This document shows, one piece after another, positions 28,162 to 40,136 of a stretch of 64,000 bases of DNA. The stretch covers positions 4,448,001 through 4,512,000 of the forward strand of contig OZ252098.1 in assembly GCA_965248355.1 (NCBI GenBank). Reading direction: 5' to 3'. Under the pieces are notes generated by a model. It was not told the origin of the DNA. It saw only the letters and a list, made by a program, of their open reading frames with translations, and made no database searches. Made by a program: the position numbers and the translations under genes. The DNA is from Candidatus Latescibacterota bacterium. Lineage in GTDB: Bacteria; Latescibacterota; UBA2968; UBA8231. Every line of letters starts with the position of its first letter. Positions within the stretch are counted from its first letter, which is position 1.

Positions 28162-29697
28162 ATGAACATCACAACCACAGGCCTCGGCCCCACGCGGGAG
28201 CGTTTCGCGGAGCTGGCCGCGCAGGGCCTCGTGGTGCCCGTGCACCGCGAGATCCTGGCGGATACGGACACGCCCGTGTCGGCCTATCTGAAACTGCGCG
28301 AGGAGAGCGACTTCGCCTTCCTCTTCGAGAGCGTCGAGGGTGGGGAGCGGGCGGGGCGCTACTCCTTTCTGGGGATCCGGCCGAGTCTGCTGTTCCGGTC
28401 GCGGGGCCGCCAGGTGTCGATCGAGGACCGCGAGACCGGCCGGCGCCGCGACTTCGAGGCCGACCCCCGCGCCGCCCTGCGCGAGGTCATGGAGTCGCGG
28501 AGGGGCACGTCGCTCCCGGGCCTGCCGCCCTTCACCGGCGGCGCCGTGGGCTACCTGGCCTACGACGGCGTCCGCCTCGTGGAGGAGATCCCCGACAGCT
28601 GCGAGGACGACCTCGGCCTCGACGACATGGTCTTCGCCCTCTACGAGACCGTGGTCGCCTTCGACAACCTGCGGCACACGGTGATGATCATCGCCAATGT
28701 CCGCGCCGGCGGGGGAACCACCGTGGAGGAGGCCTGGGAGGAGGCCGGCCGGCGCATCGCCGAGGTCGAGGAGATCCTGTCGCGGCCGGTGCCGCACCGG
28801 GCCCTGCGCGGCATCGGGGAGCCGGGGGAGGTGCGCTCCAACATGTCGCGGGAGCGGTTCACCGAGGCCGTGGAGCGCTGCCTGGAGTACATCCGCGCCG
28901 GGGAGGTCTTCCAGGTGGTCTTCGCCCAGCGCTTCGAGCTGGATCTGACCGGGGACCCCTTCGACGTCTACCGGGTCCTGCGCACCGTGAACCCGTCGCC
29001 GTACATGTTCCACATGACCCTGCAGGGGCTGCAGGTCCTGGGCGCCTCGCCGGAGATCCTCGTGCGCGTGCAGGACGGCACCCTCGAGGTGCGGCCCCTC
29101 GCCGGCACGCGGGGACGCGGTCGCACCGAGGAGGAGGACGCGCGCCTGGCCGACGAGCTTCTGGCCGACGCCAAGGACTGCGCCGAGCACGTCATGCTCG
29201 TCGACCTGGGGCGCAACGACGTGGGGCGCGTGTCGGCGTACGACACGGTGCGGGTCACGGAGATGATGGAGGTGGAGCGCTACTCCCACGTGATGCACAT
29301 CGTGTCGAACGTGCGCGGCCGCCTGCGCCCCGACATGGACGCCCTGGAGGCCCTCTTCGCCTGCTATCCGGCCGGCACCCTGTCGGGCGCTCCCAAGGTG
29401 CGGGCCATGGAGATCATCGACGAGTTGGAGCCGACGCGGCGGGGGATCTACGGCGGCGCCATCGGCTACCTCGACTTCTCCGGCAACCTGGACACGTGCA
29501 TCGCCATCCGCACCATGGTGGTCAAGGACGGCACCGCCTACGTGCAGGCCGGGGCCGGGATCGTGGCCGACTCCGTCCCCGAGGCGGAGTTCGAGGAGAC
29601 GGTGAACAAGGCCATGGCCCTGCTGCGGGCGGTGGAGATGGCCCACCGCGGCGGTGTCGGCTCGGCCCCGGCCCTGCTCACGGAGGACGGCTCATGA
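28162..29697 (+). CDS. trpE: anthranilate synthase component I
   Basis: [67 protein letters not shown]. Confidence 0.95.
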
Positions 29698-30260
29698 TCC
29701 TCGTGGTCGACAACTACGACTCCTTCACCTACAACCTGGTCCAGTACCTGGGCGAGCTCGGCGCCGAGCTGGTCGTCTACCGCAACGACCGCGTCACCAC
29801 CGACGAGATCGCCGGCCTGGCGCCGGAGCGCATCGTCATCTCCCCGGGGCCCTGCACGCCCGACGTGGCGGGCATCTCCATCGACGTGGTGAGCCGCTTC
29901 GCCGGGGAGATCCCCATCCTCGGCGTTTGCCTCGGGCACCAGTCCATCGGCCAGGCCTTCGGCGGCGTCGTCACCCGCGCGCCGTACGTCATGCACGGCA
30001 AGACCTCCGAGATCCACCATCACGGCCGGGGCATCTACGCCGGCCTGCCCAATCCCTTCGTGGCCACCCGCTATCACTCGCTGATCGTCGACCGGGAGTC
30101 GGTGCCGGACTGTCTGGAGGTCGTCGCCGAGACCGGGGACGGACTGGTCATGGGGCTGCGCCACCGCGAGCTGGACGTCGAGGGCGTGCAGTTCCACCCG
30201 GAGTCGATCCTCACCGCCGAGGGCCAGCGCCTGCTGGGCAACTTCCTTGCGCGGGACTGA
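29694..30260 (+). CDS. trpG: anthranilate synthase component II (glutamine amidotransferase)
   Basis: [35 protein letters not shown]. Confidence 0.95.
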
Positions 30261-30296
30261 ACCCGGGATCTTGCTTTTCCAGGGAGGATACCAACC

Positions 30297-31307
30297 ATGA
30301 TCCAGGACGCGATCCAGCAACTCATCGCCGGGCAGGACCTCGACCGTGAGACGGCCACCGCCGTGATGGAGCAGATCATGAGCGGCGAGGCCACCGACGC
30401 CCAGATCGGCGGCTTCCTCGTGGCCCTGCGCTGCAAGGGCGAGACGGTGGACGAGGTGGCCGGGTGCGCCGAGGTGATGCGGGCGAAGGCCACGCGCATC
30501 TCCGGCGGCCGGGCGCCACTGATCGACACCTGCGGCACCGGCGGCGACGCCTCGGGCACGTTCAACATCTCCACCACCGTCGCCTTCGTCGCCGCCGGCG
30601 CCGGGTGCACGGTGGCCAAACACGGCAACCGCGCCATGTCGAGCCAGTGCGGCTCCGCCGACGTGCTCGCCGAGCTGGGCGTCGACATCGAGGCCGATCC
30701 CGCCCGCGTGGGCGCCTGTCTCGACGAGGCCGGCATCGGTTTCCTCTTCGCCCCCGCCCTGCACGGCGCCATGAAGCACGCCATCGGCCCCCGCCGGGAG
30801 CTGGGCACGCGCACGGTCTTCAACATCCTCGGGCCCCTCACCAATCCGGCGGGGGCGACGCGCCACCTCATGGGCGTCTTCGCGCCGGAGCTCACCGAGC
30901 TGCAGGCCCGCGTCCTCCGCGCCCTGGGCTCCGAGCGGGCCTTCATCGTCCACGGTCTCGATGGTCTCGACGAGATCACCCTCACCGGGCCGTCCCGGGT
31001 GAGCGAGCTGGCCGGCGGCGAGGTGCGCACCTACGAGATCGAGCCCGCCGACTTCGGGCTCGACCGGGCCGAGGCCGCGGACCTGAAAGGCGGGGACGCG
31101 GCCGACAACGCCGCCATCCTGCGCCAGGTCCTCGATGGCGCCGGCGGACCCCGGGCGGACGTGGTGGTCCTCAATGCCGCCGCCGCCCTCGCCGCCGCGG
31201 GGGTGGCCGGGGATCTGGCCGCCGGGATCGAGGCCGCCCGCGAGTCGATCGCCTCGGGCCGGGCCCGCCGGTCCCTGGACCGGCTCGTGGAGGTGAGCAA
31301 CGCCTGA
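30297..31307 (+). CDS. trpD: anthranilate phosphoribosyltransferase
   Basis: DTCGTGGD, FNIST, KHGNRA..GSAD, RTVFNILGPLTNP, GLDE. Confidence 0.96.
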   Translation: MIQDAIQQLIAGQDLDRETATAVMEQIMSGEATDAQIGGFLVALRCKGETVDEVAGCAEVMRAKATRISGGRAPLIDTCGTGGDASGTFNISTTVAFVAAGAGCTVAKHGNRAMSSQCGSADVLAELGVDIEADPARVGACLDEAGIGFLFAPALHGAMKHAIGPRRELGTRTVFNILGPLTNPAGATRHLMGVFAPELTELQARVLRALGSERAFIVHGLDGLDEITLTGPSRVSELAGGEVRTYEIEPADFGLDRAEAADLKGGDAADNAAILRQVLDGAGGPRADVVVLNAAAALAAAGVAGDLAAGIEAARESIASGRARRSLDRLVEVSNA

Positions 31308-31320
31308 GGCGGGGCAGGAC

Positions 31321-32109
31321 ATGGCCGGCATCCTCGAAGAGATCGTGGCGTACAAGCGCGACTTCCTCGCCCGGCGCTTGCACGATGCGCCCCTGGCCGA
31401 GGTCCGCGCCCGGGCCCTCGACGCGTCGGATCCGGCGGACTTTGCCGGGGCCCTGGCCGCCGAGGGCGTCTCCCTGATCGCCGAGCTGAAGAAGGCCTCG
31501 CCCTCGAAGGGGGTGATCCGGGAGGACTTCGATCCGGAGGCCATCGCCCGGGCCTACGCCGGCAACGGCGCCCGCGCGCTTTCCGTGCTCACCGACGAGG
31601 CGTATTTTCAGGGCTCCGACGCCCACCTCCAGTCCGCGCGGCAGGCTGCCGGGATCCCGGTGTTGCGCAAGGACTTCACCATCGATCCCTACCAGCTCTT
31701 CGAGGCCCGCGTCATCGGCGCGGACGCCGTGCTGCTCATCGTCTCGATCATGGACGGCGGCCAGCTGGAGGACCTTCAGGGCCTGGGCCGGGAGCTGGGC
31801 CTGTCGGTGCTCGTCGAGGTCCACACCCGGGAGGAGCTGGAGCGCGCCCAGGCCGCCGAGGCCTCCCTGATGGGCATCAACAACCGCGATCTGATGACCT
31901 TCGAGACGAGCCTGGACACGACCTTCGAGCTGCGGCCCTTCGTGCCGGACGGAGTGACCCTGGTCAGCGAGAGCGGCATCGAGCACCACGAGCACCTGCG
32001 CCAGCTCGGCGAGGCCGGCGTCGACGCCGTGCTGGTGGGCGAGTCCCTCATGCGGGCCGGGGACCCGGGCGCCGCCGTGCGCGACCTCCTCGGCGGCGAG
32101 GAGAGCTGA
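31321..32109 (+). CDS. trpC: indole-3-glycerol phosphate synthase
   Basis: IAELKKASPSKG, SVLTD, LRKDF, GINNRDL, SESGI, LVGESLM. Confidence 0.96.
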   Translation: MAGILEEIVAYKRDFLARRLHDAPLAEVRARALDASDPADFAGALAAEGVSLIAELKKASPSKGVIREDFDPEAIARAYAGNGARALSVLTDEAYFQGSDAHLQSARQAAGIPVLRKDFTIDPYQLFEARVIGADAVLLIVSIMDGGQLEDLQGLGRELGLSVLVEVHTREELERAQAAEASLMGINNRDLMTFETSLDTTFELRPFVPDGVTLVSESGIEHHEHLRQLGEAGVDAVLVGESLMRAGDPGAAVRDLLGGEES

Positions 32110-32110
32110 C

Positions 32111-33094
32111 GTGGCGCCGCGCGTGTTCTCCGGCATCCAGCCGTCGGGCGAGCCCCACCTGGGCAACTACATCGGCGCCATCCGCAACTGGGTGAGCGAC
32201 CAGGAGCGCTACGACAACTTCTTCTGCATCGTCGACGAGCACGCCATCACCGTGCCCTTCGACCCGGCCGAGCTGCGGGCCAAGGTGCGGGAGCTGGTGG
32301 GGGTGCTGGTGGCCTGCGGCATCGACCCGGAGCGCAGCGTCCTCTTCGTCCAGTCCCACGTGGCCGAGCACACGGAGCTGGCCTGGCTGCTGACCTGCAA
32401 CACCCCCATGGGCTGGCTCGAGCGCATGACCCAGTTCAAGGACAAGGCCGGCAGCCGGCGCGAGCGGGTCGGCGCCGGTCTGTTCACCTACCCCGTGCTC
32501 ATGGCGGCCGACATCCTCCTCTACCAGACCTCGGTGGTGCCCGTGGGCGACGACCAGAAGCAGCACGTGGAGCTGGCCCGCGACATCGCCGGCCGCTTCA
32601 ACAATCTCTACGGCGAGGTCTTCACCCTGCCGGAGCCGCTGATCCGCGAGGTCGGCGCGCGCGTCATGGGGCTCGACGACCCCACGAAGAAGATGTCCAA
32701 GTCGGTGGAGGGACAGCATCACGCCATCGGGCTGCTCCACGAGCCCGACCTGATCCGGCGCAGGATCGGCCGCGCCGTCACCGACTCGCTGCGGGAGATC
32801 CGCTTCGACGAGGACCGCCCCGGCGTAAACAACCTGCTGACCATCCATCACGCCCTCTCAGGGCAGGACAAGGCCGGGATCGAGGCCCACTTCGAGGGCA
32901 AGGGCTACGGCGACCTGAAGAAGGAGGTGGCCGACGTCGTGGTGGAGTCCCTGGCCCCGGTGCGGCGGCGCTACGCCGAGATCACCGCCGATCCGGCGAC
33001 CGTCGACGGGATCCTCGAGGCGGGGCGCGAGCGGGCGCGGCCGGTGGCCGAGGCCACCATGGAAGACGTGCGCCGGGCCATGGGACTGCGGTGA
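32111..33094 (+). CDS. trpS: tryptophanyl-tRNA synthetase
   Basis: SGIQPSG.PHLGNY, YPVLMAADIL, VPVGDDQ, KMSKS. Confidence 0.96.
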   Translation: MAPRVFSGIQPSGEPHLGNYIGAIRNWVSDQERYDNFFCIVDEHAITVPFDPAELRAKVRELVGVLVACGIDPERSVLFVQSHVAEHTELAWLLTCNTPMGWLERMTQFKDKAGSRRERVGAGLFTYPVLMAADILLYQTSVVPVGDDQKQHVELARDIAGRFNNLYGEVFTLPEPLIREVGARVMGLDDPTKKMSKSVEGQHHAIGLLHEPDLIRRRIGRAVTDSLREIRFDEDRPGVNNLLTIHHALSGQDKAGIEAHFEGKGYGDLKKEVADVVVESLAPVRRRYAEITADPATVDGILEAGRERARPVAEATMEDVRRAMGLR

Positions 33095-33098
33095 GCCC

Positions 33099-33383
33099 AT
33101 GGCCGACGGGAAGGACATCGATGACTGGCGGGCCCGCATCGACGAGGTGGACGAGAGGATCGTCGACCTGATCAACGAGAGACTGGGCTACGCCATCGAG
33201 ATCGGCCGGCTCAAGCGGGCCAGCGGCCGGCAGGTGCGCGACCGGGCCCGGGAGCGGGCCCTCATCGAGCGGCTCCAGGCCTTCAACCGGGGTCCCCTGA
33301 GCGAGGAGGCCATCGCCGACCTCTTCGCCCGAATCATGGCCGAGGCCCGCACCCTCGAAGGCGGGGGGGACGGGGCGCCGTGA
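33099..33383 (+). CDS. chorismate mutase (AroQ type)
   Basis: RARIDEVDERIVDLINER..IGRLK..VRDRARE pattern. Confidence 0.88.
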   Translation: MADGKDIDDWRARIDEVDERIVDLINERLGYAIEIGRLKRASGRQVRDRARERALIERLQAFNRGPLSEEAIADLFARIMAEARTLEGGGDGAP

Positions 33384-34501
33384 GCACCGCCAACCGGTCC
33401 TCCCGGTTCGGGCGAATCGGGATCGTCGGCGTCGGACTGATCGGCGGCTCCTTCGGCCTGGCCCTGCGGCGCACGGGATACGCCGGTTCGATCGTCGGCA
33501 TCAGCCGGCCCGAGACGGTGGAGAAGGCCGTCTCCCTCGGGGCCGTGGACGAGGGCTGGGACTACGAGGAAGTGGACCGGGGGCTGGCCGGGGCGGACCT
33601 CGTCTTCCTGTGCTCGCCCATCCGCCACATCATCGACTTCCTGCCGCGGGTCATGGCGGCGGTGCCGGCCGGGGCCCTGGTCACCGACGCGGGCAGCACC
33701 AAGCGCAGCATCGTAGACGCCGCTGCGGCCACGGGGCGGTTCGACGCCTGGTTCCTCGGCGGCCATCCCATGGCCGGCTCGGAGAAGTCGGGGGTGATGG
33801 CGGCCGATCCGTTCCTGTTCCAGAACGCGATCCACATCCTCGTGCCCGACGCCGCCGTGCCGGAAGATCTGCACCAGGGCTTGCGCGATCTGCTCCGCGG
33901 CCTCGGGGCCCGCGTCCTCGAGCTGTCGGCGGAGGACCACGACCTGGTGGTGGCCGCCATCAGCCACCTGCCCCAGCTGCTGGCCACCTCCCTCGTGGAG
34001 ATGGTGGGCCTTCTGGACGAGGAGCGGGAGGGCCTGCTCCTGACCCTGGCGGCCGGCGGGTTCCGCGACCTGACGAGAATCGCCTCCAGCCGCTTCGAGC
34101 CGGTCTGGAACGACATCTGTGCCACCAACCCGGACCGAATCCGCGAGATGGTCGACCGTTTCCAGGCGCGCCTGGCCCAGGTGCGCGACAAGGTGGGCGG
34201 CAGCGCTCTGGAGGCCGACTTCGAGTACGCCAACCGGATCCGCGACGGCATCCCGAGGGACGCCAAGGGGTTCATCCACCGGCTGGCGGAGGTGCTCGTG
34301 GTCTGCGAGGACCGGCCGGGGGTGATCGCCGAGATCGCCGCCGTCCTGGCGGCGGAGGACGTGAACATCAACGACATCGAGGTGATGAAGGTGCGCGAAG
34401 GAGAGGGGGGGACCCTGCGGCTGGGCTTCGATGGCGACGGGGTGGCCGACCACGCGGTGGAGGTGCTCGGGGCCGTGGGCTACCGGGCGCGGCGGCCCTG
34501 A
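33380..34501 (+). CDS. tyrA: prephenate/arogenate dehydrogenase with C-terminal ACT domain
   Basis: GVGLIGGS, TDAGSTK, GGHPMAGSE, HD..VAAISHLP, GFRDLTRIA, DRPGVIA. Confidence 0.93.
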   Translation: MSTANRSSRFGRIGIVGVGLIGGSFGLALRRTGYAGSIVGISRPETVEKAVSLGAVDEGWDYEEVDRGLAGADLVFLCSPIRHIIDFLPRVMAAVPAGALVTDAGSTKRSIVDAAAATGRFDAWFLGGHPMAGSEKSGVMAADPFLFQNAIHILVPDAAVPEDLHQGLRDLLRGLGARVLELSAEDHDLVVAAISHLPQLLATSLVEMVGLLDEEREGLLLTLAAGGFRDLTRIASSRFEPVWNDICATNPDRIREMVDRFQARLAQVRDKVGGSALEADFEYANRIRDGIPRDAKGFIHRLAEVLVVCEDRPGVIAEIAAVLAAEDVNINDIEVMKVREGEGGTLRLGFDGDGVADHAVEVLGAVGYRARRP

Positions 34502-34504
34502 CCG

Positions 34505-35806
34505 ATGGTGCGGACCGTTTTCAGGGCCACTCGCCTCCGGGGCGAGGTCCGGGTGCCCGGCGAACGCGACCGGGCCATCCAGGCCCTGTGGATGGCGGCC
34601 GTGTCGGAGGGCCCCAGCCGGATCGGCGGCGTGCCCCCCGGGGCGGTGGGAACCGTGACCGCCCTGCGGCGGCTCGGCGTCGGGGTGAACGACGACAACG
34701 GAGGCGGTCTCCGCGTCGACGGCCGCGGTCCGGGAGGGCTCGAGCCCCCCGGGGACATCCTCGATCTGGAGGGCTCGGAGGAGGCGGTGCTGCCGGCTCT
34801 GGCGATCCTGGCCCGGCAGCCCTTTCCCAGCCGCGTGCGGGTCCCCGGGCCGGTGCGGGACCGGGCGGCTCAGCTCCTGCGGCTGCTGGCGCGCACCGGC
34901 TCCGTGGGCACGGAAGAGGCCGAGGGCGTCCTTCGCCTGGAGGGGGCCGCGGGCCCCGGCGGGGCCGACCACGAGGAGACGGACCTGCCGGCGCCGGTGA
35001 AGCTCGGCCTGCTGACGGCTGGCCTCTTCGCCGAGGCTCCCACCGTGGTGCGCGAGCCGGCCTCCTGCCGCGACCGCGTCGAGGCGCCGTGGAGGGAGCG
35101 CGGCGTTCCGGTGGAGAGCGGCCGCCGGGGCGATCCGCCGGCGCGCACCCTGACCCTGTCGCCGGGGTCGGCGCCGAAGGCCCTGGATGTGGATGTCCCC
35201 GGAGACCTGGCGGGGGCCTTGCCGGTGGTGGTCGCGGCCCTGGCCGTGCGCCGCTCGGAGGTCGCCGTGCGCCGGGTCATGGTGCGCCCGGGGAACCGCC
35301 TCTTCGTCGACCTGGTGCGCCAGATCGGCGGCGAGCTGGAGATCGTCGAGGCCGGGGACGGCAGCGTCGATCTGCTGGTCCGAGGCTCGGCGAAGCTCCA
35401 GGCGACGCGGGTGGCCGACCGCCGGGCCCGGAGGCTGCTGGAGCACGTGGCCCTGCTGGCGGTGCTGGCCACCCAGACCGAGGGCGAGTTCATCATCCGG
35501 GACATCGAGCCGCTGCGCCAGGGCGAGTACGACTTCGTCGACCACCTCGTGGACCAGTTGCGGCGGGTCGAGGCCAAGGTCGGCGAGTATCACGAGGGCC
35601 TGGTGATCGAGGGCGGCCGGCCGCTGAAGGGGGAGCGCATCGACGGCCGGGGTCACCCGGGTCTGGTGCAGGCCTTCGCCGTGGCCGGCCTCGTCGCCCA
35701 CGGCCAGATGGAGATCGCCGGCGCGGACTGCGTCGAAGCCTCCTTCCCGGGGTTCTTCGATCTCCTCGACGCGTTGCAGGCCCCCAGGGCCAGGGAGAAT
35801 GCGTGA
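34505..35806 (+). CDS. EPSP synthase (AroA)-fold protein lacking canonical catalytic motifs
   Basis: Collinear with class II AroA (LRGEVRVPG, DVPGD, DIEPLR, SFPGFF) and in the aroA position after tyrA, but the signature motifs are replaced (see findings). Confidence 0.8.
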   Translation: MVRTVFRATRLRGEVRVPGERDRAIQALWMAAVSEGPSRIGGVPPGAVGTVTALRRLGVGVNDDNGGGLRVDGRGPGGLEPPGDILDLEGSEEAVLPALAILARQPFPSRVRVPGPVRDRAAQLLRLLARTGSVGTEEAEGVLRLEGAAGPGGADHEETDLPAPVKLGLLTAGLFAEAPTVVREPASCRDRVEAPWRERGVPVESGRRGDPPARTLTLSPGSAPKALDVDVPGDLAGALPVVVAALAVRRSEVAVRRVMVRPGNRLFVDLVRQIGGELEIVEAGDGSVDLLVRGSAKLQATRVADRRARRLLEHVALLAVLATQTEGEFIIRDIEPLRQGEYDFVDHLVDQLRRVEAKVGEYHEGLVIEGGRPLKGERIDGRGHPGLVQAFAVAGLVAHGQMEIAGADCVEASFPGFFDLLDALQAPRARENA

Positions 35807-35946
35807 TGAGAATTCTGTTGCGGCTGCTGGTGCTGGCCGCCGTGGTCTTCGGCGGCGGCGTGCTGCTGATCAAGGTGCTCTACGGGGCGAGCTGGGGCGA
35901 GTCTCTCGAGATCGCCGACCAGTTCCTGGAGGACGTCCTCGGGTGA
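35806..35946 (+). CDS. small membrane protein (46 aa)
   Basis: MRILLRLLVLAAVVFGGGVLLIKVLYGASWGESLEIADQFLEDVLG*; overlaps both neighbouring stop/start codons; GGGAG upstream. Confidence 0.65.
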   Translation: MRILLRLLVLAAVVFGGGVLLIKVLYGASWGESLEIADQFLEDVLG

Positions 35947-36776
35947 TCACCGGCCGGACCGGGGTCCTCGGCGTCATCGGCCATCCGGTGACGCACTCGG
36001 GGTCCCCGGCGATGCACAACGCGGCCCTGGCGGCCACGGGTCTGGACTACGTGTACGTCGCCTTCCCGGTGCCGCCGGAGAGCGCCGCCCACGTGGGCGG
36101 CGCCATGCGCCACTTCGGCATCCGCGGCCTCAACGTCACCGTGCCCCACAAGCAGGCGGTCCTGTCCTGCCTCGACGAGGTGGCCCCGGAGGCGCGGGCC
36201 ATCGGCGCCGTGAACACCATCGACCACCGCGGCGGCCGCCTGGTGGGGCACAACACCGACGCCCACGGCGTGCTCGCCAGCCTGCGCGAGGGAGGGTTGG
36301 AGCGGCTGCCGCCGAAGGTCGCCCTTCTGGGCGCCGGCGGCGCGGCCCAGGCCGTCCTCTACGCCCTGCTCTCCCGCGGCGAGGTGGAGGAGGTGTCGCT
36401 GCTCAACCGCACCCCCTCCCGGGCCGAGAGCCTGGCCGAGTCCCTGGACGGCGGCGGCCGGGTGCGGGTGGCGCCCCTGAAGGAGAGCGCCTGCGTGCGC
36501 GAGGCGGGGCTGGTCATCAACGCCACCTCCATCGGCATGGAGCCCGCGGCCGGCGTCTCGCCGCTGGGCGACGGCCGCGTCCTGCACGACGGCATGGTGG
36601 TGCTCGACATCGTCTACAAGCCGCTGCGCACGCGCCTTCTGGAGCAGGCCCAGGCCGCCGGCGCCCGCGCTCTGGACGGGTTGGGGATGCTGGTGCACCA
36701 GGGCGCCCGGTCCTTCGAGATCTGGACCGGGGTGCGGCCGCCGGTGGACGTCATGCGGCGGGCCCTCGAGGCGTGA
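35943..36776 (+). CDS. aroE: shikimate dehydrogenase
   Basis: HSGSPAMHN, GLNVTVPHK, GAVNT, NTD, GAGGAA, NATSIG, GLGMLVHQG. Confidence 0.93.
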   Translation: MITGRTGVLGVIGHPVTHSGSPAMHNAALAATGLDYVYVAFPVPPESAAHVGGAMRHFGIRGLNVTVPHKQAVLSCLDEVAPEARAIGAVNTIDHRGGRLVGHNTDAHGVLASLREGGLERLPPKVALLGAGGAAQAVLYALLSRGEVEEVSLLNRTPSRAESLAESLDGGGRVRVAPLKESACVREAGLVINATSIGMEPAAGVSPLGDGRVLHDGMVVLDIVYKPLRTRLLEQAQAAGARALDGLGMLVHQGARSFEIWTGVRPPVDVMRRALEA

Positions 36777-38497
36777 CGGAGGAGGCGCGGGTGAATCCAT
36801 TCGTGGAGGAGATCGTCGAGAGGACGGCCGCCGCCGGCCTGGACCCGTCCATCGTGCGCGGGCTGCTCGCCGTCCCGCCGGAGGAGAGCATGGGCGACTA
36901 CGCCCTGCCCTGCTTTACCCTGGCCAGGGAACTGCGCCGGAACCCGGCCCAGATCGCCGCCGACGTGGCCGAACGCATCCTCCCCGGGATCGGCCCCGGG
37001 GGCCGCATCGCCGCCGTCGCCGCCGCCGGGCCGTACGTCAACTTCACCCTCGACCGGCCCGCCTTCATCGGCCACACCCTCGACGAGATCGCCGCCCTCG
37101 GCCCGACCTACGGCTCCCGCGGACAGGGCGCCGGCCGGAGCCTGGCCCTCGACTTCTCCTCGCCGAACCTGGCCCGTCCGTTCTCCATCGCCCACCTGCG
37201 CTCCACCGCCATCGGCCACGCCATCTACCGCATCCACGAGTTCCTGGGCTGGCGCTGCGTCGGCATCAACTACTACGGCGACTACGGCGCCAACTTCGGC
37301 CAGCTCCTGGCGGCGTACGCCGCCTGGGGGGACGAGGAGCGCATCCGCGCCGATCCGATCCGGGAGCTGGTGGGCCTCTACGTGCGCTTCCACCGGGAGG
37401 CCGAGGCCGACCCGGGGCTGAGGGACCGGGCCCGGGACTGCCTGCGGGCCCTGGCCTCCGGCGACGAGGAGATGGTCCGGCTCTGGCGGTGGTTCTCCGA
37501 CGAGGGCCGCAAGGAGGCGGAGCGTATCTACGGCATCCTGGGCGTGCGCTTCGACGAGGTCCTGGGGGAGAGCCACTTCGCCGGCCAGCTCGACGAGGTG
37601 GCCGCCTTCTTCGAGGAACGGGGACTGGCGGAGGAGAGCGAGGGCGCCCTCATCGTGCCCCTCGAGGACCAGGCGGCGCCGCTCATGCTGCGCACCTCCA
37701 ACGGCACCAGCACCTACCACAGCCGGGACGTGGCGGCCCTGCTCTACCGGCAGCGCCAGCACGCCTTCGACAAGATGGTCTACGTCACCGACATGCGGCA
37801 GCGCCTGCACTTCGAGCAGCTCTTCGGCGCCCTGCGCCGGGCCGGCGTCGACTGGATCGACCGCTGCCAGCACGCGCCCTTCGGGCTCATGTCCTTCCGC
37901 GGCCGGGCCCTGGCCACGCGCAAGGGCGAGGTGATCATTCTCGAGGACGTCCTCGACCGGGCCATCGCCCTCACCGAGGGCATCATCGCCGAGAAGAACC
38001 CGGGTCTGGCCGGCGCCGCGGAGGTGGCGCGGCAGGTGGGGATCAGCGCCGTGGTCTTCGCCGACGTCAACAACCGCCGCACCCGGGACATCCACTTCTC
38101 CCTCGAGGAGGTCCTCAACTTCGACGGCGAGACCGGGCCGTACGTGCAGTACACCCACGCCCGCTACTGCAGCATCCTGCGGCGCCACGGCCGGCCCGTG
38201 GACCCGGCCGCCGACACCTCCCGCCTGGGGGAGGCGGGGGAGATGCGGCTGGCGCGCAAGCTCGCCGAGTTTCCCGATGTCGTCGACTCGGCGGCGGCGG
38301 AGAACGAGCCGTCGTACGCGGCCGGCTACCTGCTCGAGCTGGCCGCGGCGGCCAACAAGCTCTACAACGAGGTGCCCGTTCTGGTGGGCGGCGACGAGGG
38401 CCTGACGGCGGCGCGCGTGCGCCTCGCCGACGGGGCCCGCGGGGTGCTGCGCACGGGGCTCGACCTGCTGGGCATGAGCGCCCCCGAGGAGATGTAG
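36773..38497 (+). CDS. argS: arginyl-tRNA synthetase
   Basis: GPYVNF, DFSSPNLARPFSIAHLRSTAIG, GDYG, Q..HF.Q, GETGPYVQYTHAR, C-terminal PEEM. Confidence 0.93.
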   Translation: MTEEARVNPFVEEIVERTAAAGLDPSIVRGLLAVPPEESMGDYALPCFTLARELRRNPAQIAADVAERILPGIGPGGRIAAVAAAGPYVNFTLDRPAFIGHTLDEIAALGPTYGSRGQGAGRSLALDFSSPNLARPFSIAHLRSTAIGHAIYRIHEFLGWRCVGINYYGDYGANFGQLLAAYAAWGDEERIRADPIRELVGLYVRFHREAEADPGLRDRARDCLRALASGDEEMVRLWRWFSDEGRKEAERIYGILGVRFDEVLGESHFAGQLDEVAAFFEERGLAEESEGALIVPLEDQAAPLMLRTSNGTSTYHSRDVAALLYRQRQHAFDKMVYVTDMRQRLHFEQLFGALRRAGVDWIDRCQHAPFGLMSFRGRALATRKGEVIILEDVLDRAIALTEGIIAEKNPGLAGAAEVARQVGISAVVFADVNNRRTRDIHFSLEEVLNFDGETGPYVQYTHARYCSILRRHGRPVDPAADTSRLGEAGEMRLARKLAEFPDVVDSAAAENEPSYAAGYLLELAAAANKLYNEVPVLVGGDEGLTAARVRLADGARGVLRTGLDLLGMSAPEEM

Positions 38498-38499
38498 CC

Positions 38500-39036
38500 G
38501 TGGGCCGGCCGGCGCCGATCTTCCTCACCGGGTTCATGGCCACGGGCAAGAGCCGCATCGGCCGCCTGCTGGCGGCCCGTCTCGACCGCCCCTTCTACGA
38601 CACCGACGAGATGGTGGAGCGGCGGGCCGGGAGGACGGTCTCCGAGATCTTCTCCGCCTGCGGCGAGGAGGGCTTCCGCGAGCTGGAGTCGGCCTGCGTC
38701 CTCGAGGCCGCCCGCCAGGCCGGGGCCGTCGTCGCCCTCGGCGGGGGGGCCATCACGCGAACAGAGAACCGGGAGGCGATCCGCGCCGCCGGCGCCGTCC
38801 TGGTCTGCGTCGAGGCCGACGTGGAGGCCATTGTCCGGCGCCTCTCCCGGCGCGAGGACCGGCCCCTGCTGGCCGGCCTGACGCCCCATCAGCGGCGCCG
38901 CAAGGTGGAGGAGATGCTGGCCGAGCGGGCTCCCTATTACGCCGCCGCCCACATCACCGTTCGCACCTCGGAGGAGACCTCGGCCGAGGAGATGGCGGGC
39001 GGCCTGGCCGAGCGGCTCGGGGAGGGCCGCCCATGA
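38500..39036 (+). CDS. aroK: shikimate kinase
   Basis: GFMATGKS, DTD, GEEGFRELE, ALGGG, RPLL, ERAPYY. Confidence 0.92.
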   Translation: MGRPAPIFLTGFMATGKSRIGRLLAARLDRPFYDTDEMVERRAGRTVSEIFSACGEEGFRELESACVLEAARQAGAVVALGGGAITRTENREAIRAAGAVLVCVEADVEAIVRRLSRREDRPLLAGLTPHQRRRKVEEMLAERAPYYAAAHITVRTSEETSAEEMAGGLAERLGEGRP

Positions 39037-40136
39037 AGGAGATCACCGTCCGGCTGCCCGGGGGGAGGGACTACGACATCGTCGTCGGTCACGGCTCCCT
39101 CGAGGCCCTCGGGGAGCGCTGCCGGAGCCTGAATCTCGGCGGATCCTGCGCCCTCATCGGCGACGCGGCCCTGGCGGACACCTTTGTGGAGCAGGCCCGC
39201 CGCAGCCTGTGCGGCGCCGGCTTCGAGGTCCTGGTGCTCGGCTACGCCGCCGGCGAGGCGGGCAAGAACCTGGCCTCGGTGGAGGAGCTGGCGGGCGGCA
39301 TGTCCGGCGCCGGCCTCGACCGCGGCGCCTGGGTGGCCGCCGTGGGCGGGGGCGTCGTGGGCGACCTGGCCGGCTTCGTGGCCGCCAGCTACCTGCGCGG
39401 CGTCGACGTGGTCCAGGTGCCGACGACCATCGTCTCCCAGGTCGACGCCAGCATCGGCGGCAAGACGGCCGTCAACCTCCCCTCCGGCAAGAACCTGGTG
39501 GGCGCCTTCCACCAGCCGCGGCTGGTCCTGGCCGACACCGGGACCCTGCGCACCCTGCCCCGGGCGGAGGTCGTGGCCGGCCTGGCGGAGGTCGTCAAGC
39601 ACGGCGTCATCCGCGACGAGGAGCTCTTCGCCCTTCTCGAGCGGCGCCTGGAGGAGGTCGTGGAGATGCGCGTCGGCGCCGCGGAGCTGGACGCCCTGAT
39701 CGCCCGCAACGCGCGGATCAAGGGCGAGGTGGTCGCCGCCGACGAGCGCGAGGGCGGCCTGCGGGCCATCCTCAACTACGGACACACCCTGGGCCACGCC
39801 ATCGAGTCGGCCAGCGGCTACCGTTTCCGCCACGGCGAGGCCGTCCTGCTCGGCATGGCCGCCGCCTCCGAGATCGCGGCGCGCCTCGGGCTGTGGGAGA
39901 GCGCCGGGGCGCGCGCCCGCCACGACGCCCTCGTGGAGCGGCTGGGCGTGCCCTCCGGAGTCGGCGGGATCGACGCAGGCCGTATCTTTGAACGCACCCG
40001 GTCCGACAAGAAGCGGGCCGCCGGCCGCAATCGCTTCGTCCTGGCCCGCGGCATCGGCCGCGTGGAGGTCGTGGACGGCGTCGACGACGCCGTCGTCCGC
40101 GAAGCCGTATCCTCTCTACAGCACAGGTACCCATGA
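39033..40136 (+). CDS. aroB: 3-dehydroquinate synthase
   Basis: GGGVVGDLAGF, PTT..QVDASIGGKT, KNLVGAFHQP, LNYGHTLGHAIE, HGEAV, DKK. Confidence 0.95.
   Translation: MKEITVRLPGGRDYDIVVGHGSLEALGERCRSLNLGGSCALIGDAALADTFVEQARRSLCGAGFEVLVLGYAAGEAGKNLASVEELAGGMSGAGLDRGAWVAAVGGGVVGDLAGFVAASYLRGVDVVQVPTTIVSQVDASIGGKTAVNLPSGKNLVGAFHQPRLVLADTGTLRTLPRAEVVAGLAEVVKHGVIRDEELFALLERRLEEVVEMRVGAAELDALIARNARIKGEVVAADEREGGLRAILNYGHTLGHAIESASGYRFRHGEAVLLGMAAASEIAARLGLWESAGARARHDALVERLGVPSGVGGIDAGRIFERTRSDKKRAAGRNRFVLARGIGRVEVVDGVDDAVVREAVSSLQHRYP

Follow-up and report, generated by a model that had tools for sequence, protein, structure and literature searches.

A 64,000-nt stretch of contig OZ252098.1 (positions 4,448,001 to 4,512,000 of the forward strand; assembly GCA_965248355.1) from a Candidatus Latescibacterota bacterium, referred to below as the window, carries a gene in an aromatic-pathway operon that we call pAroA. 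It is a paralog of 5-enolpyruvylshikimate-3-phosphate (EPSP) synthase derived from class II AroA. The protein is predicted to keep the full EPSP-synthase fold, and the residues at its former active site indicate that it is probably catalytically dead. The gene has been under purifying selection for the whole lifetime of the class to which this bacterium belongs, and it is orthologous to the active class II AroA enzymes that occupy the same operon slot in sister lineages. The reading that we favour, and to which we give about an even chance, is that pAroA is a pseudoenzyme that arose from the operon's own class II AroA and serves an inherited, non-catalytic role, likely a protein contact, through its C-terminal lobe.

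Loss of the EPSP synthase signature motifs

A preliminary description of this DNA had placed an uninterrupted 433-aa open reading frame (ORF) between tyrA and aroE. The frame is present, and its product matches the Pfam family PF00275 end to end (115.9 bits, profile positions 5–416 of 417). An open frame alone is weak evidence for a gene in this region because GC-rich DNA yields long chance ORFs: the local GC content is 0.70–0.78, and in other frames chance ORFs 837 and 778 aa long run across pAroA. We regard pAroA as a real gene because of this end-to-end family match, because orthologs are found in 40 of 41 sampled genomes of the class, and because the ratio of nonsynonymous to synonymous substitution rates (dN/dS) is well below 1. 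Against the aroA equivalog model TIGR01356 the protein scores 136.9 bits, below the cut-off of 287.25. Among NCBIfam models it fits best to NF011381, in the AroA half (160.4 bits, positions 306–723, cut-off 902), and it stays far under the cut-offs of the MurA families NF006873 (25.4 bits versus 297) and TIGR01072 (22.3 versus 392.7).

The closest solved structures by sequence are class II EPSP synthases (EPSPS), led by 3rmt (E = 3e-45) and followed by the Coxiella, S. pneumoniae and CP4 enzymes. A residue-by-residue HMMER alignment to 3rmt contains all of the motif substitutions listed in the preliminary description. VPGDKSISHR is replaced by VPGERDRAIQ, GNSGTT by EGSEEA, SAQ(M/V)K by PAPVK, RDHTE by RDRVE, PGDISSA by PGDLAGA, NPTR by RPGN, IDE by LEH, KVKETNR by RQGEYDF and GDHRIGMA by GHPGLVQA; SFPGFF is retained. 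In E. coli numbering, the residues that we take to bind shikimate-3-phosphate (S3P) and phosphoenolpyruvate (PEP) or to act in catalysis are K22, R27, R124, S169-S170-Q171, D313, K340/E341/R344, H385/R386 and K411, and the roles of the alignment columns in S3P and PEP binding are likewise those that we assume from the E. coli enzyme. pAroA does not carry the S3P- and PEP-binding and catalytic residues of a functional AroA.

The same pattern extends across the family. In an alignment of 24 full-length pAroA orthologs and 27 canonical AroAs of this class, 72 columns are at least 95% conserved in the canonical enzymes, and only 20 of these are kept in at least 80% of the dead copies. The retained columns hold Gly, Pro, Leu, Ala and Ser plus R338 and D343, and R338 is the one basic or Ser/Gln ligand residue among them. 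At the position of the catalytic Lys the dead copies have L, R, A, F, V or I; one former Arg position (R124) has E or D; the Ser-Ser-Gln position has P, A, S and others; the His-Arg position has P or A followed by G; the last Lys position has A, G, E, P, R or L; and the S20 position has become E. E341 is retained in 12 of the 24 orthologs and D343 in all of them. A motif scan of the best 80 related loci in the genome collection found Lys-Ser, GN.GT, KE.DR or DHR in none of the 52 family members; the other 28 loci are more distant and belong to other phyla, and all four motifs are present in most of them.

An AlphaFold2 (AF2) model of pAroA based on 76 homologs has a mean predicted local distance difference test score (pLDDT) of 94.5 and a predicted template-modelling score (pTM) of 0.91. 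The top Foldseek matches of this model in the PDB are class II EPSPS (E ∼1e-35, template-modelling (TM) score 0.6–0.79), where the spread in TM score reflects lobe orientation. The PF00275 match, the AF2 model and the Foldseek result all point to homology with a two-lobe enolpyruvyl-transferase fold, and the structure prediction that had been proposed as a check returned, for pAroA alone, a confident EPSPS fold.

Canonical AroA at another locus

The preliminary description had also suggested searching for a canonical aroA in the same genome. There is one: the 5.5-Mb genome of the window has a match to the aroA model of 338.3 bits at C1:1299508–1300752, encoding a 436-aa protein with the Lys/Arg, GNAG, SSQ, LKECDR, DHR and C-terminal Lys motifs. 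MurA, at C1:616590–617804, is the third family member in this genome. Canonical AroA over the cut-off is found elsewhere in 37 of the 41 class genomes, and three of the four misses carry fragments of one at contig ends.

Two types of canonical AroA serve the class (loci L039–L065, with the copy of the window's genome at positions 1471–2781 of L001, minus strand), and for this reason the catalytic aroA seems to have been replaced more than once. Most genomes of f1, the family that includes the window's genome, have a ‘PPSSKNYTxRY’ type (331–373 bits). Families f2–f4 and two f1 genera (G010 and G022) have a ‘PGSKSxTNR’ type (420–469 bits).

Three families outside the class, f5, f7 and f9, have in this slot, ahead of the 46-aa ORF and aroE, an intact canonical class II AroA with the motifs VPGDKSISHR, GNAGT or ENSGT, SAQVKS, RDHTE, NPTR, IDE, KKETDR and DHR, and none of the four genomes searched has another AroA over the cut-off. 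We placed these proteins in a maximum-likelihood tree of 43 rows, which included 12 of the canonical AroAs and omitted the partial sequences L032 and L033, the half-size forms described below and L065. The slot copies, dead and active alike, group in a single clade (SH-aLRT 99) to which neither canonical type belongs, and the f1 dead copies are monophyletic (100). pAroA is orthologous to the active class II AroA of this slot. The forks that join f1, f4, f10 and the active copies are open in this tree, so there could have been one to three inactivations. The intact AroA in the sister slots, where there is no second aroA, leads us to propose that a foreign aroA took over catalysis and that the old copy was retained.

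Outside the class, family f10 has a degenerate copy in the same slot, in addition to a canonical AroA elsewhere (401–433 bits) in four of the four genomes searched. These slot copies (L101–L103 and L105) are full-length open frames of 446–465 aa that are much more diverged and lie ∼700 nt from tyrA. They may represent an independent and more advanced decay series. A contig-end fragment labelled Fibrobacterota (L188) contains part of the C-terminal half of an AroA in which IDE is kept, LRSIDADC stands for LR.KE.DR and GDSR for GDHR; it may be an independent, partly degenerate AroA from outside the phylum.

Distribution and purifying selection

A survey of the 41 class genomes for pAroA gave a match in every one. 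The match in G026 is a canonical AroA only, which leaves the dead type, in the slot between tyrA and aroE, in 40. It is present in the window's genome and all 24 others of f1 (one copy is cut by a contig end), in 12 of 12 genomes of f2, two of three of f3 and the single genome of f4, with the copies in f2 and f3 being half-size. Ortholog identity to the window protein ranges from 85% down to ∼29%. Apart from one in-frame TGA in one of 30 loci, the frames of the dead copies are intact, even at identities down to 29–40%.

To quantify selection, we computed pairwise Nei–Gojobori dN/dS in two groups of congeners, A and B. The median for pAroA is 0.275 in group A (10 pairs) and 0.150 in group B (6 pairs), compared with 0.226 (10 pairs) and 0.094 (3 pairs) for tyrA, 0.231 (10 pairs) and 0.099 (3 pairs) for aroE, and 0.177 (10 pairs) and 0.091 (6 pairs) for canonical aroA. 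The earlier claim that the gene is kept by selection and is not undergoing random decay agrees with a dead state that is class-wide and with dN/dS values of 0.15–0.28, near those of the neighbouring enzymes. Recent decay was to have been recognized by orthologs with canonical motifs together with a dN/dS near 1 on this branch. Such orthologs exist, but in sister lineages that lack a second aroA, and the dead branch itself is old and constrained. pAroA combines what is expected of a pseudoenzyme: it is a clear homolog without the catalytic residues, an active counterpart is present, and it has been under long-term purifying selection.

In families f13 and f6, there is no AroA-like gene beside the small ORF, and canonical AroA is on another contig. 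ORFs of 299 and 105 aa upstream of the small ORF in f6 and f13 were considered as remnants of pAroA and rejected (hhalign probabilities of 0.2 and 0.1). For close homologs in public databases, NCBI uses the name ‘hypothetical protein’ and JGI the name ‘EPSP synthase’, and their source metagenome-assembled genomes are labelled Gemmatimonadetes/-ota, Gemmatimonadaceae or Candidatus Latescibacterota. Phylum labels are inconsistent for L135, L136 and many of L116–L166 (Gemmatimonadota, Candidatus Latescibacterota, Planctomycetota, Handelsmanbacteria); the kin of these records fall in one phylum in the genome collection.

Half-size forms and the C-terminal lobe

The two lobes of pAroA differ in constraint. 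Residues 20–228, which correspond to what we take to be the S3P-binding lobe in active enzymes, have dN/dS values of 0.339 and 0.183 in groups A and B, versus 0.136 and 0.120 for the C-terminal lobe (full-length proteins in both cases). Column conservation is highest at residues 301–375 (mean 0.73).

In f2 and f3, the slot protein is only 216–227 aa long, with the N-terminal strand joined directly to the C-terminal half. These half-size forms (L035–L038 and L106–L115) are without the lobe of residues 20–228, cover Pfam positions ∼219–415, and are flanked by tyrA (or another gene) on the upstream side and by the small ORF and aroE on the downstream side. The lobe of residues 20–228 is dispensable, having been cut out in two families. 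The half-size genes are themselves constrained (dN/dS 0.07–0.18, 3 pairs). One half-size form predicted alone gives a pLDDT of 94.3 and a pTM of 0.91, from an alignment that included full-length relatives, and superposes on one EPSPS lobe with a TM score normalized to the query (TMq) of ∼0.8 and a root-mean-square deviation (rmsd) of 2.2–2.6 Å. Half and full forms are 33–35% identical and have specific surface-strand motifs in common.

Residues conserved in both the full and half dead forms are R265, R272, T301-R302, T323-Q324, G327-E328, I331-R332-D333, L337-R338, D343, R353 and G360-E361. The same or similar residues are found in three active relatives, which suggests that selection preserves an inherited property of the lobe and not a new catalytic or ligand site. 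R307 and H347, which are specific to f1, are not kept in the half forms.

Gene neighbourhood

The features of the locus are listed in Table 1. They belong to a large aromatic supraoperon on the plus strand (29496–40136), in which chorismate mutase, tyrA, pAroA, aroE, aroK and aroB were identified by Pfam and trpG, trpD, trpC, trpS and argS were read by eye from the translations.

Table 1. Features of the pAroA locus, in window coordinates
Feature	Position	Strand	Evidence and remarks
Chorismate mutase (CM_2)	33099..33383	+	PF01817, 81.1 bits; head of the CM–tyrA–pAroA–small ORF–aroE block
tyrA, prephenate dehydrogenase with C-terminal ACT domain	33380..34501	+	Pfam PDH_N, PDH_C, ACT
pAroA, EPSP-synthase paralog derived from class II AroA, 433 aa	34505..35806	+	ORF, PF00275, structure model, dN/dS
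Inserted lobe of pAroA, residues 20–228	34562..35188	+	More relaxed half; precisely deleted in two related families
Kept lobe of pAroA, residues 229–433, with N-terminal strand (residues 1–19)	35189..35803	+	Most constrained part
46-aa ORF	35806..35946	+	N-terminal hydrophobic helix and acidic tail SWxESLEIADQFxEDLL
aroE, shikimate dehydrogenase	35943..36776	+	Pfam Shikimate_dh_N, Shikimate_DH, SDH_C

The tyrA stop lies 3 nt before the ATG of pAroA (…CCC TGA CCG ATG), and no clear Shine–Dalgarno sequence precedes this ATG. The end of tyrA directly precedes pAroA in most of the 24 ortholog loci; the exceptions are L025 and L030, where tyrA is not directly upstream, and L018, where it is further upstream. 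The best NCBIfam match and the gene order, tyrA then aroA, recall the bifunctional TyrA–AroA proteins (NF011381, PRK14806). pAroA differs from these in being unfused and in scoring far below the cut-off: in the window, as in each of the 24 loci examined, tyrA has a stop of its own ahead of pAroA, and the two are not a single polypeptide of the NF011381 kind. The long frames seen in G007, G002 and G010 (837, 832 and 796 aa) were considered as possible tyrA–pAroA fusions and rejected, with tyrA stopping in another frame; they are artefacts attributable to GC-rich DNA.

The 46-aa neighbour noted in the preliminary description is a genuine ORF and is conserved. It begins at an ATG that overlaps the stop of pAroA (TGATG), and it lies downstream of pAroA or the half form in 27 of the 27 loci with downstream DNA. 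A profile of this ORF matches 145 of the 168 genomes of the phylum, in single copy except in G003, where the second match is a contig-end fragment; its dN/dS is 0.06–0.17. No family for it was found in Pfam or NCBIfam, and its sequence suggests a membrane-type protein. It usually lies between aroA (or the dead copy) and aroE, and in f6 it stands beside fmt with no aro genes nearby. The 46-aa ORF is independent of pAroA, because it also occurs without an AroA-like neighbour (f13 and f6); in f13, the small ORF and aroE remain together with no AroA-like gene upstream. A complex prediction for pAroA and the 46-aa protein, run without controls, scored 0.00 and is evidence neither way.

The start of aroE is the GTG at 35943 rather than the longest-ORF start, ATG 35799, as conservation across loci begins at ‘ITGRTGVLGVIGHP’. 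This GTG overlaps the stop of the 46-aa ORF (GTGA), and GGAGGA is found 9 nt upstream. Both the 46-aa ORF and aroE have their own purine-rich sites upstream. The Shine–Dalgarno-like GGAGGA of aroE falls inside the conserved ‘LED’ codons of the 46-aa ORF tail (35928–35945), and because of this position the conservation of the tail may be partly at the nucleotide level.

Discussion

pAroA resembles class II EPSPS (3rmt, 3tr1/3roi, 1rf4 and CP4 2gg4) in its two-lobe fold, its length, its best sequence and structure matches and its operon slot beside tyrA, and it clusters with the intact class II AroAs of sister lineages. It differs in that its ligand-binding and catalytic motifs are all replaced, in scoring below the equivalog cut-off, in not being the genome's only aroA, and in having single-lobe derivatives. 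We propose that an ancestral class II EPSP synthase sat in the tyrA–aroA–(46-aa ORF)–aroE operon of the phylum and that catalysis later passed to a second aroA, of another type and at another locus. The operon copy then lost every substrate-binding and catalytic residue, and it kept its predicted fold and stayed under purifying selection. What was preserved would be an inherited, non-catalytic property of the lobe made up of the N-terminal strand and residues 229–433. The likeliest such property is a protein–protein contact with TyrA, AroE, AroB or the 46-aa protein, through which the old AroA, although inactive, would have become an indispensable structural or regulatory subunit. Of the two options in the preliminary description, a pseudoenzyme or a neofunctionalised protein, the data favour the non-catalytic one, because the active-site columns are variable, the conserved residues are inherited, and in two families the cleft has gone together with the deleted lobe.

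Several observations weigh against a retained contact role. In other genera, pAroA identity is 39–51% versus 59–69% for tyrA, aroE and canonical aroA, and its branches in the tree are about twice as long as those of its active relatives. Conservation of an inherited core is equally expected from selection for foldability alone. The f10 copies are also without R332, R338 and R353, which looks more like continued decay, and the complete loss of pAroA next to the 46-aa ORF in f13 and f6 indicates that it is dispensable in some lineages. The protein contact is itself something we infer, and its partner is only proposed. As to expression, metatranscriptome contigs from two studies fall on the locus (35343–35805 and 35507–36023, one mismatch each), the second bridging the end of pAroA, the small ORF and the start of aroE. 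They give a weak hint that the locus is expressed; contigs from RNA libraries may come from carried-over DNA, and gaps in their cover are uninformative.

A more specific version, which we put forward tentatively, is that the C-terminal lobe would be a dedicated subunit that binds another aromatic-pathway enzyme and stabilises or regulates it, through a contact that predates the displacement and locked the gene in place. The model for such a protein is HisZ, a catalytically dead histidyl-tRNA-synthetase paralog that serves as the regulatory subunit of ATP phosphoribosyltransferase. Like pAroA, HisZ is a dead enzyme paralog kept by selection within an amino-acid biosynthesis operon. The fold families differ, and the partner and role of HisZ are proven whereas those of pAroA are proposed. 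Rcl1 offers a second parallel. It is an inactive relative of RNA 3′-phosphate cyclase, whose family fold resembles an EPSPS/MurA lobe, and it shows such a lobe being used without catalysis as a binding module, but it is a eukaryotic protein of ribosome biogenesis and had no sequence relation to pAroA in the searches made. The EPSPS domain of fungal AROM/Aro1 (6hqv and 7u5t) is among the structural matches of pAroA. The titles of these entries (pentafunctional AROM complex; DHQS/EPSPS dimer of Aro1) describe an EPSPS lobe assembled with other shikimate enzymes, although there the EPSPS domain is active and fused into one chain. By this analogy, a contact between pAroA and AroB is only a lead. 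If the HisZ-like reading is true, pAroA would belong to the first non-catalytic EPSPS family and would provide the first case of an enolpyruvyl-transferase domain that stands free as a single lobe, perhaps linked to the 46-aa membrane protein.

pAroA might instead be a translated spacer, a functionless ORF that persists through translational coupling along tyrA–pAroA–46-aa ORF–aroE, with selection acting only to keep the product soluble and cheap. Such selection would explain both the low dN/dS of the core and the shrinkage to half size. The gene junctions are compatible with coupling, since stops and starts are 3 nt apart or overlap at all three and no clear Shine–Dalgarno sequence precedes the pAroA ATG. 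The conserved residues form an inherited core with no new site, one lobe has been deleted in two families, and the whole gene is gone from f13 and f6. We nevertheless consider a spacer unlikely. pAroA is retained in 40 of 41 class genomes though precise deletions can happen, the dN/dS of its C-terminal lobe (0.12–0.14) equals that of true enzymes, and the surface-strand motifs common to half and full forms at 33–35% identity are specific. In addition, the 46-aa ORF and aroE have purine-rich sites of their own and persist together in f13 without an AroA-like gene.

It is also doubtful that pAroA is a ligand sensor, for instance of an aromatic-pathway intermediate or end product, or a new enzyme working at a remodelled site. 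A set of charged residues (R265, R272, R302, R332, R338, R353, D333, D343 and E361) is invariant in f1, and the gene sits among feedback-regulated enzymes, with an ACT domain in TyrA. However, these invariant residues are already present in active relatives and none defines a new site, and the half forms, in which the interdomain cleft is abolished, do not have the f1-specific H347 and R307. The former S3P and PEP positions are variable or acidic (E/D at the R124 position, E at the S20 position).

The idea that pAroA is still a working EPSP synthase with unconventional residues fits the data poorly and is very improbable. The complete fold, the aroA slot and the JGI name of some homologs speak for it, but the Lys, Arg, Ser-Ser-Gln, Lys/Arg, His-Arg and Lys positions are replaced with no consistent alternative, the 136.9-bit score is below the equivalog cut-off of 287.25, a canonical AroA is encoded in the same genome, half-size orthologs cannot form a two-lobe active site, and NCBI names close homologs ‘hypothetical protein’. 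Recent inactivation of a gene on its way to loss can be dismissed as hardly credible: pAroA does evolve faster than its neighbours, but dead copies are common to f1–f4 (and f10) at identities down to 29–40%, their frames are undisrupted except for the one in-frame TGA in 30 loci, and dN/dS is 0.15–0.28.

Full-text literature searches turned up no publication on inactive paralogs of EPSPS or aroA. In outline, a scheme described in a preprint classes EPSPS annotations drawn from Pfam PF00275, UniProt and COG by active-site markers and designates those that do not fit as ‘unclassified EPSPS’ (10.1101/2020.05.27.118265). Judging from that outline, pAroA-like proteins probably fall in the ‘unclassified EPSPS’ bin of glyphosate-sensitivity classifiers. 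The annotation of such genes as EPSP synthase by some pipelines can mislead metabolic reconstructions and estimates of herbicide impact. As a pair, the dead aroA and the small ORF could be of use as a taxonomic marker.

Few enzymes have been studied as much as EPSP synthase, which is the target of glyphosate and also an antimicrobial target. As far as our literature searches show, a non-catalytic branch of EPSPS that is maintained by selection and has a natural one-lobe form is undescribed. pAroA is a clean case in nature of a gene that was retained after its xenologous displacement, and with intact, dead, half-size and lost states all found within one phylum, the question of why a dead enzyme is kept becomes directly testable. 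A non-catalytic branch of this kind would show that the EPSPS fold has a second use that is independent of catalysis.

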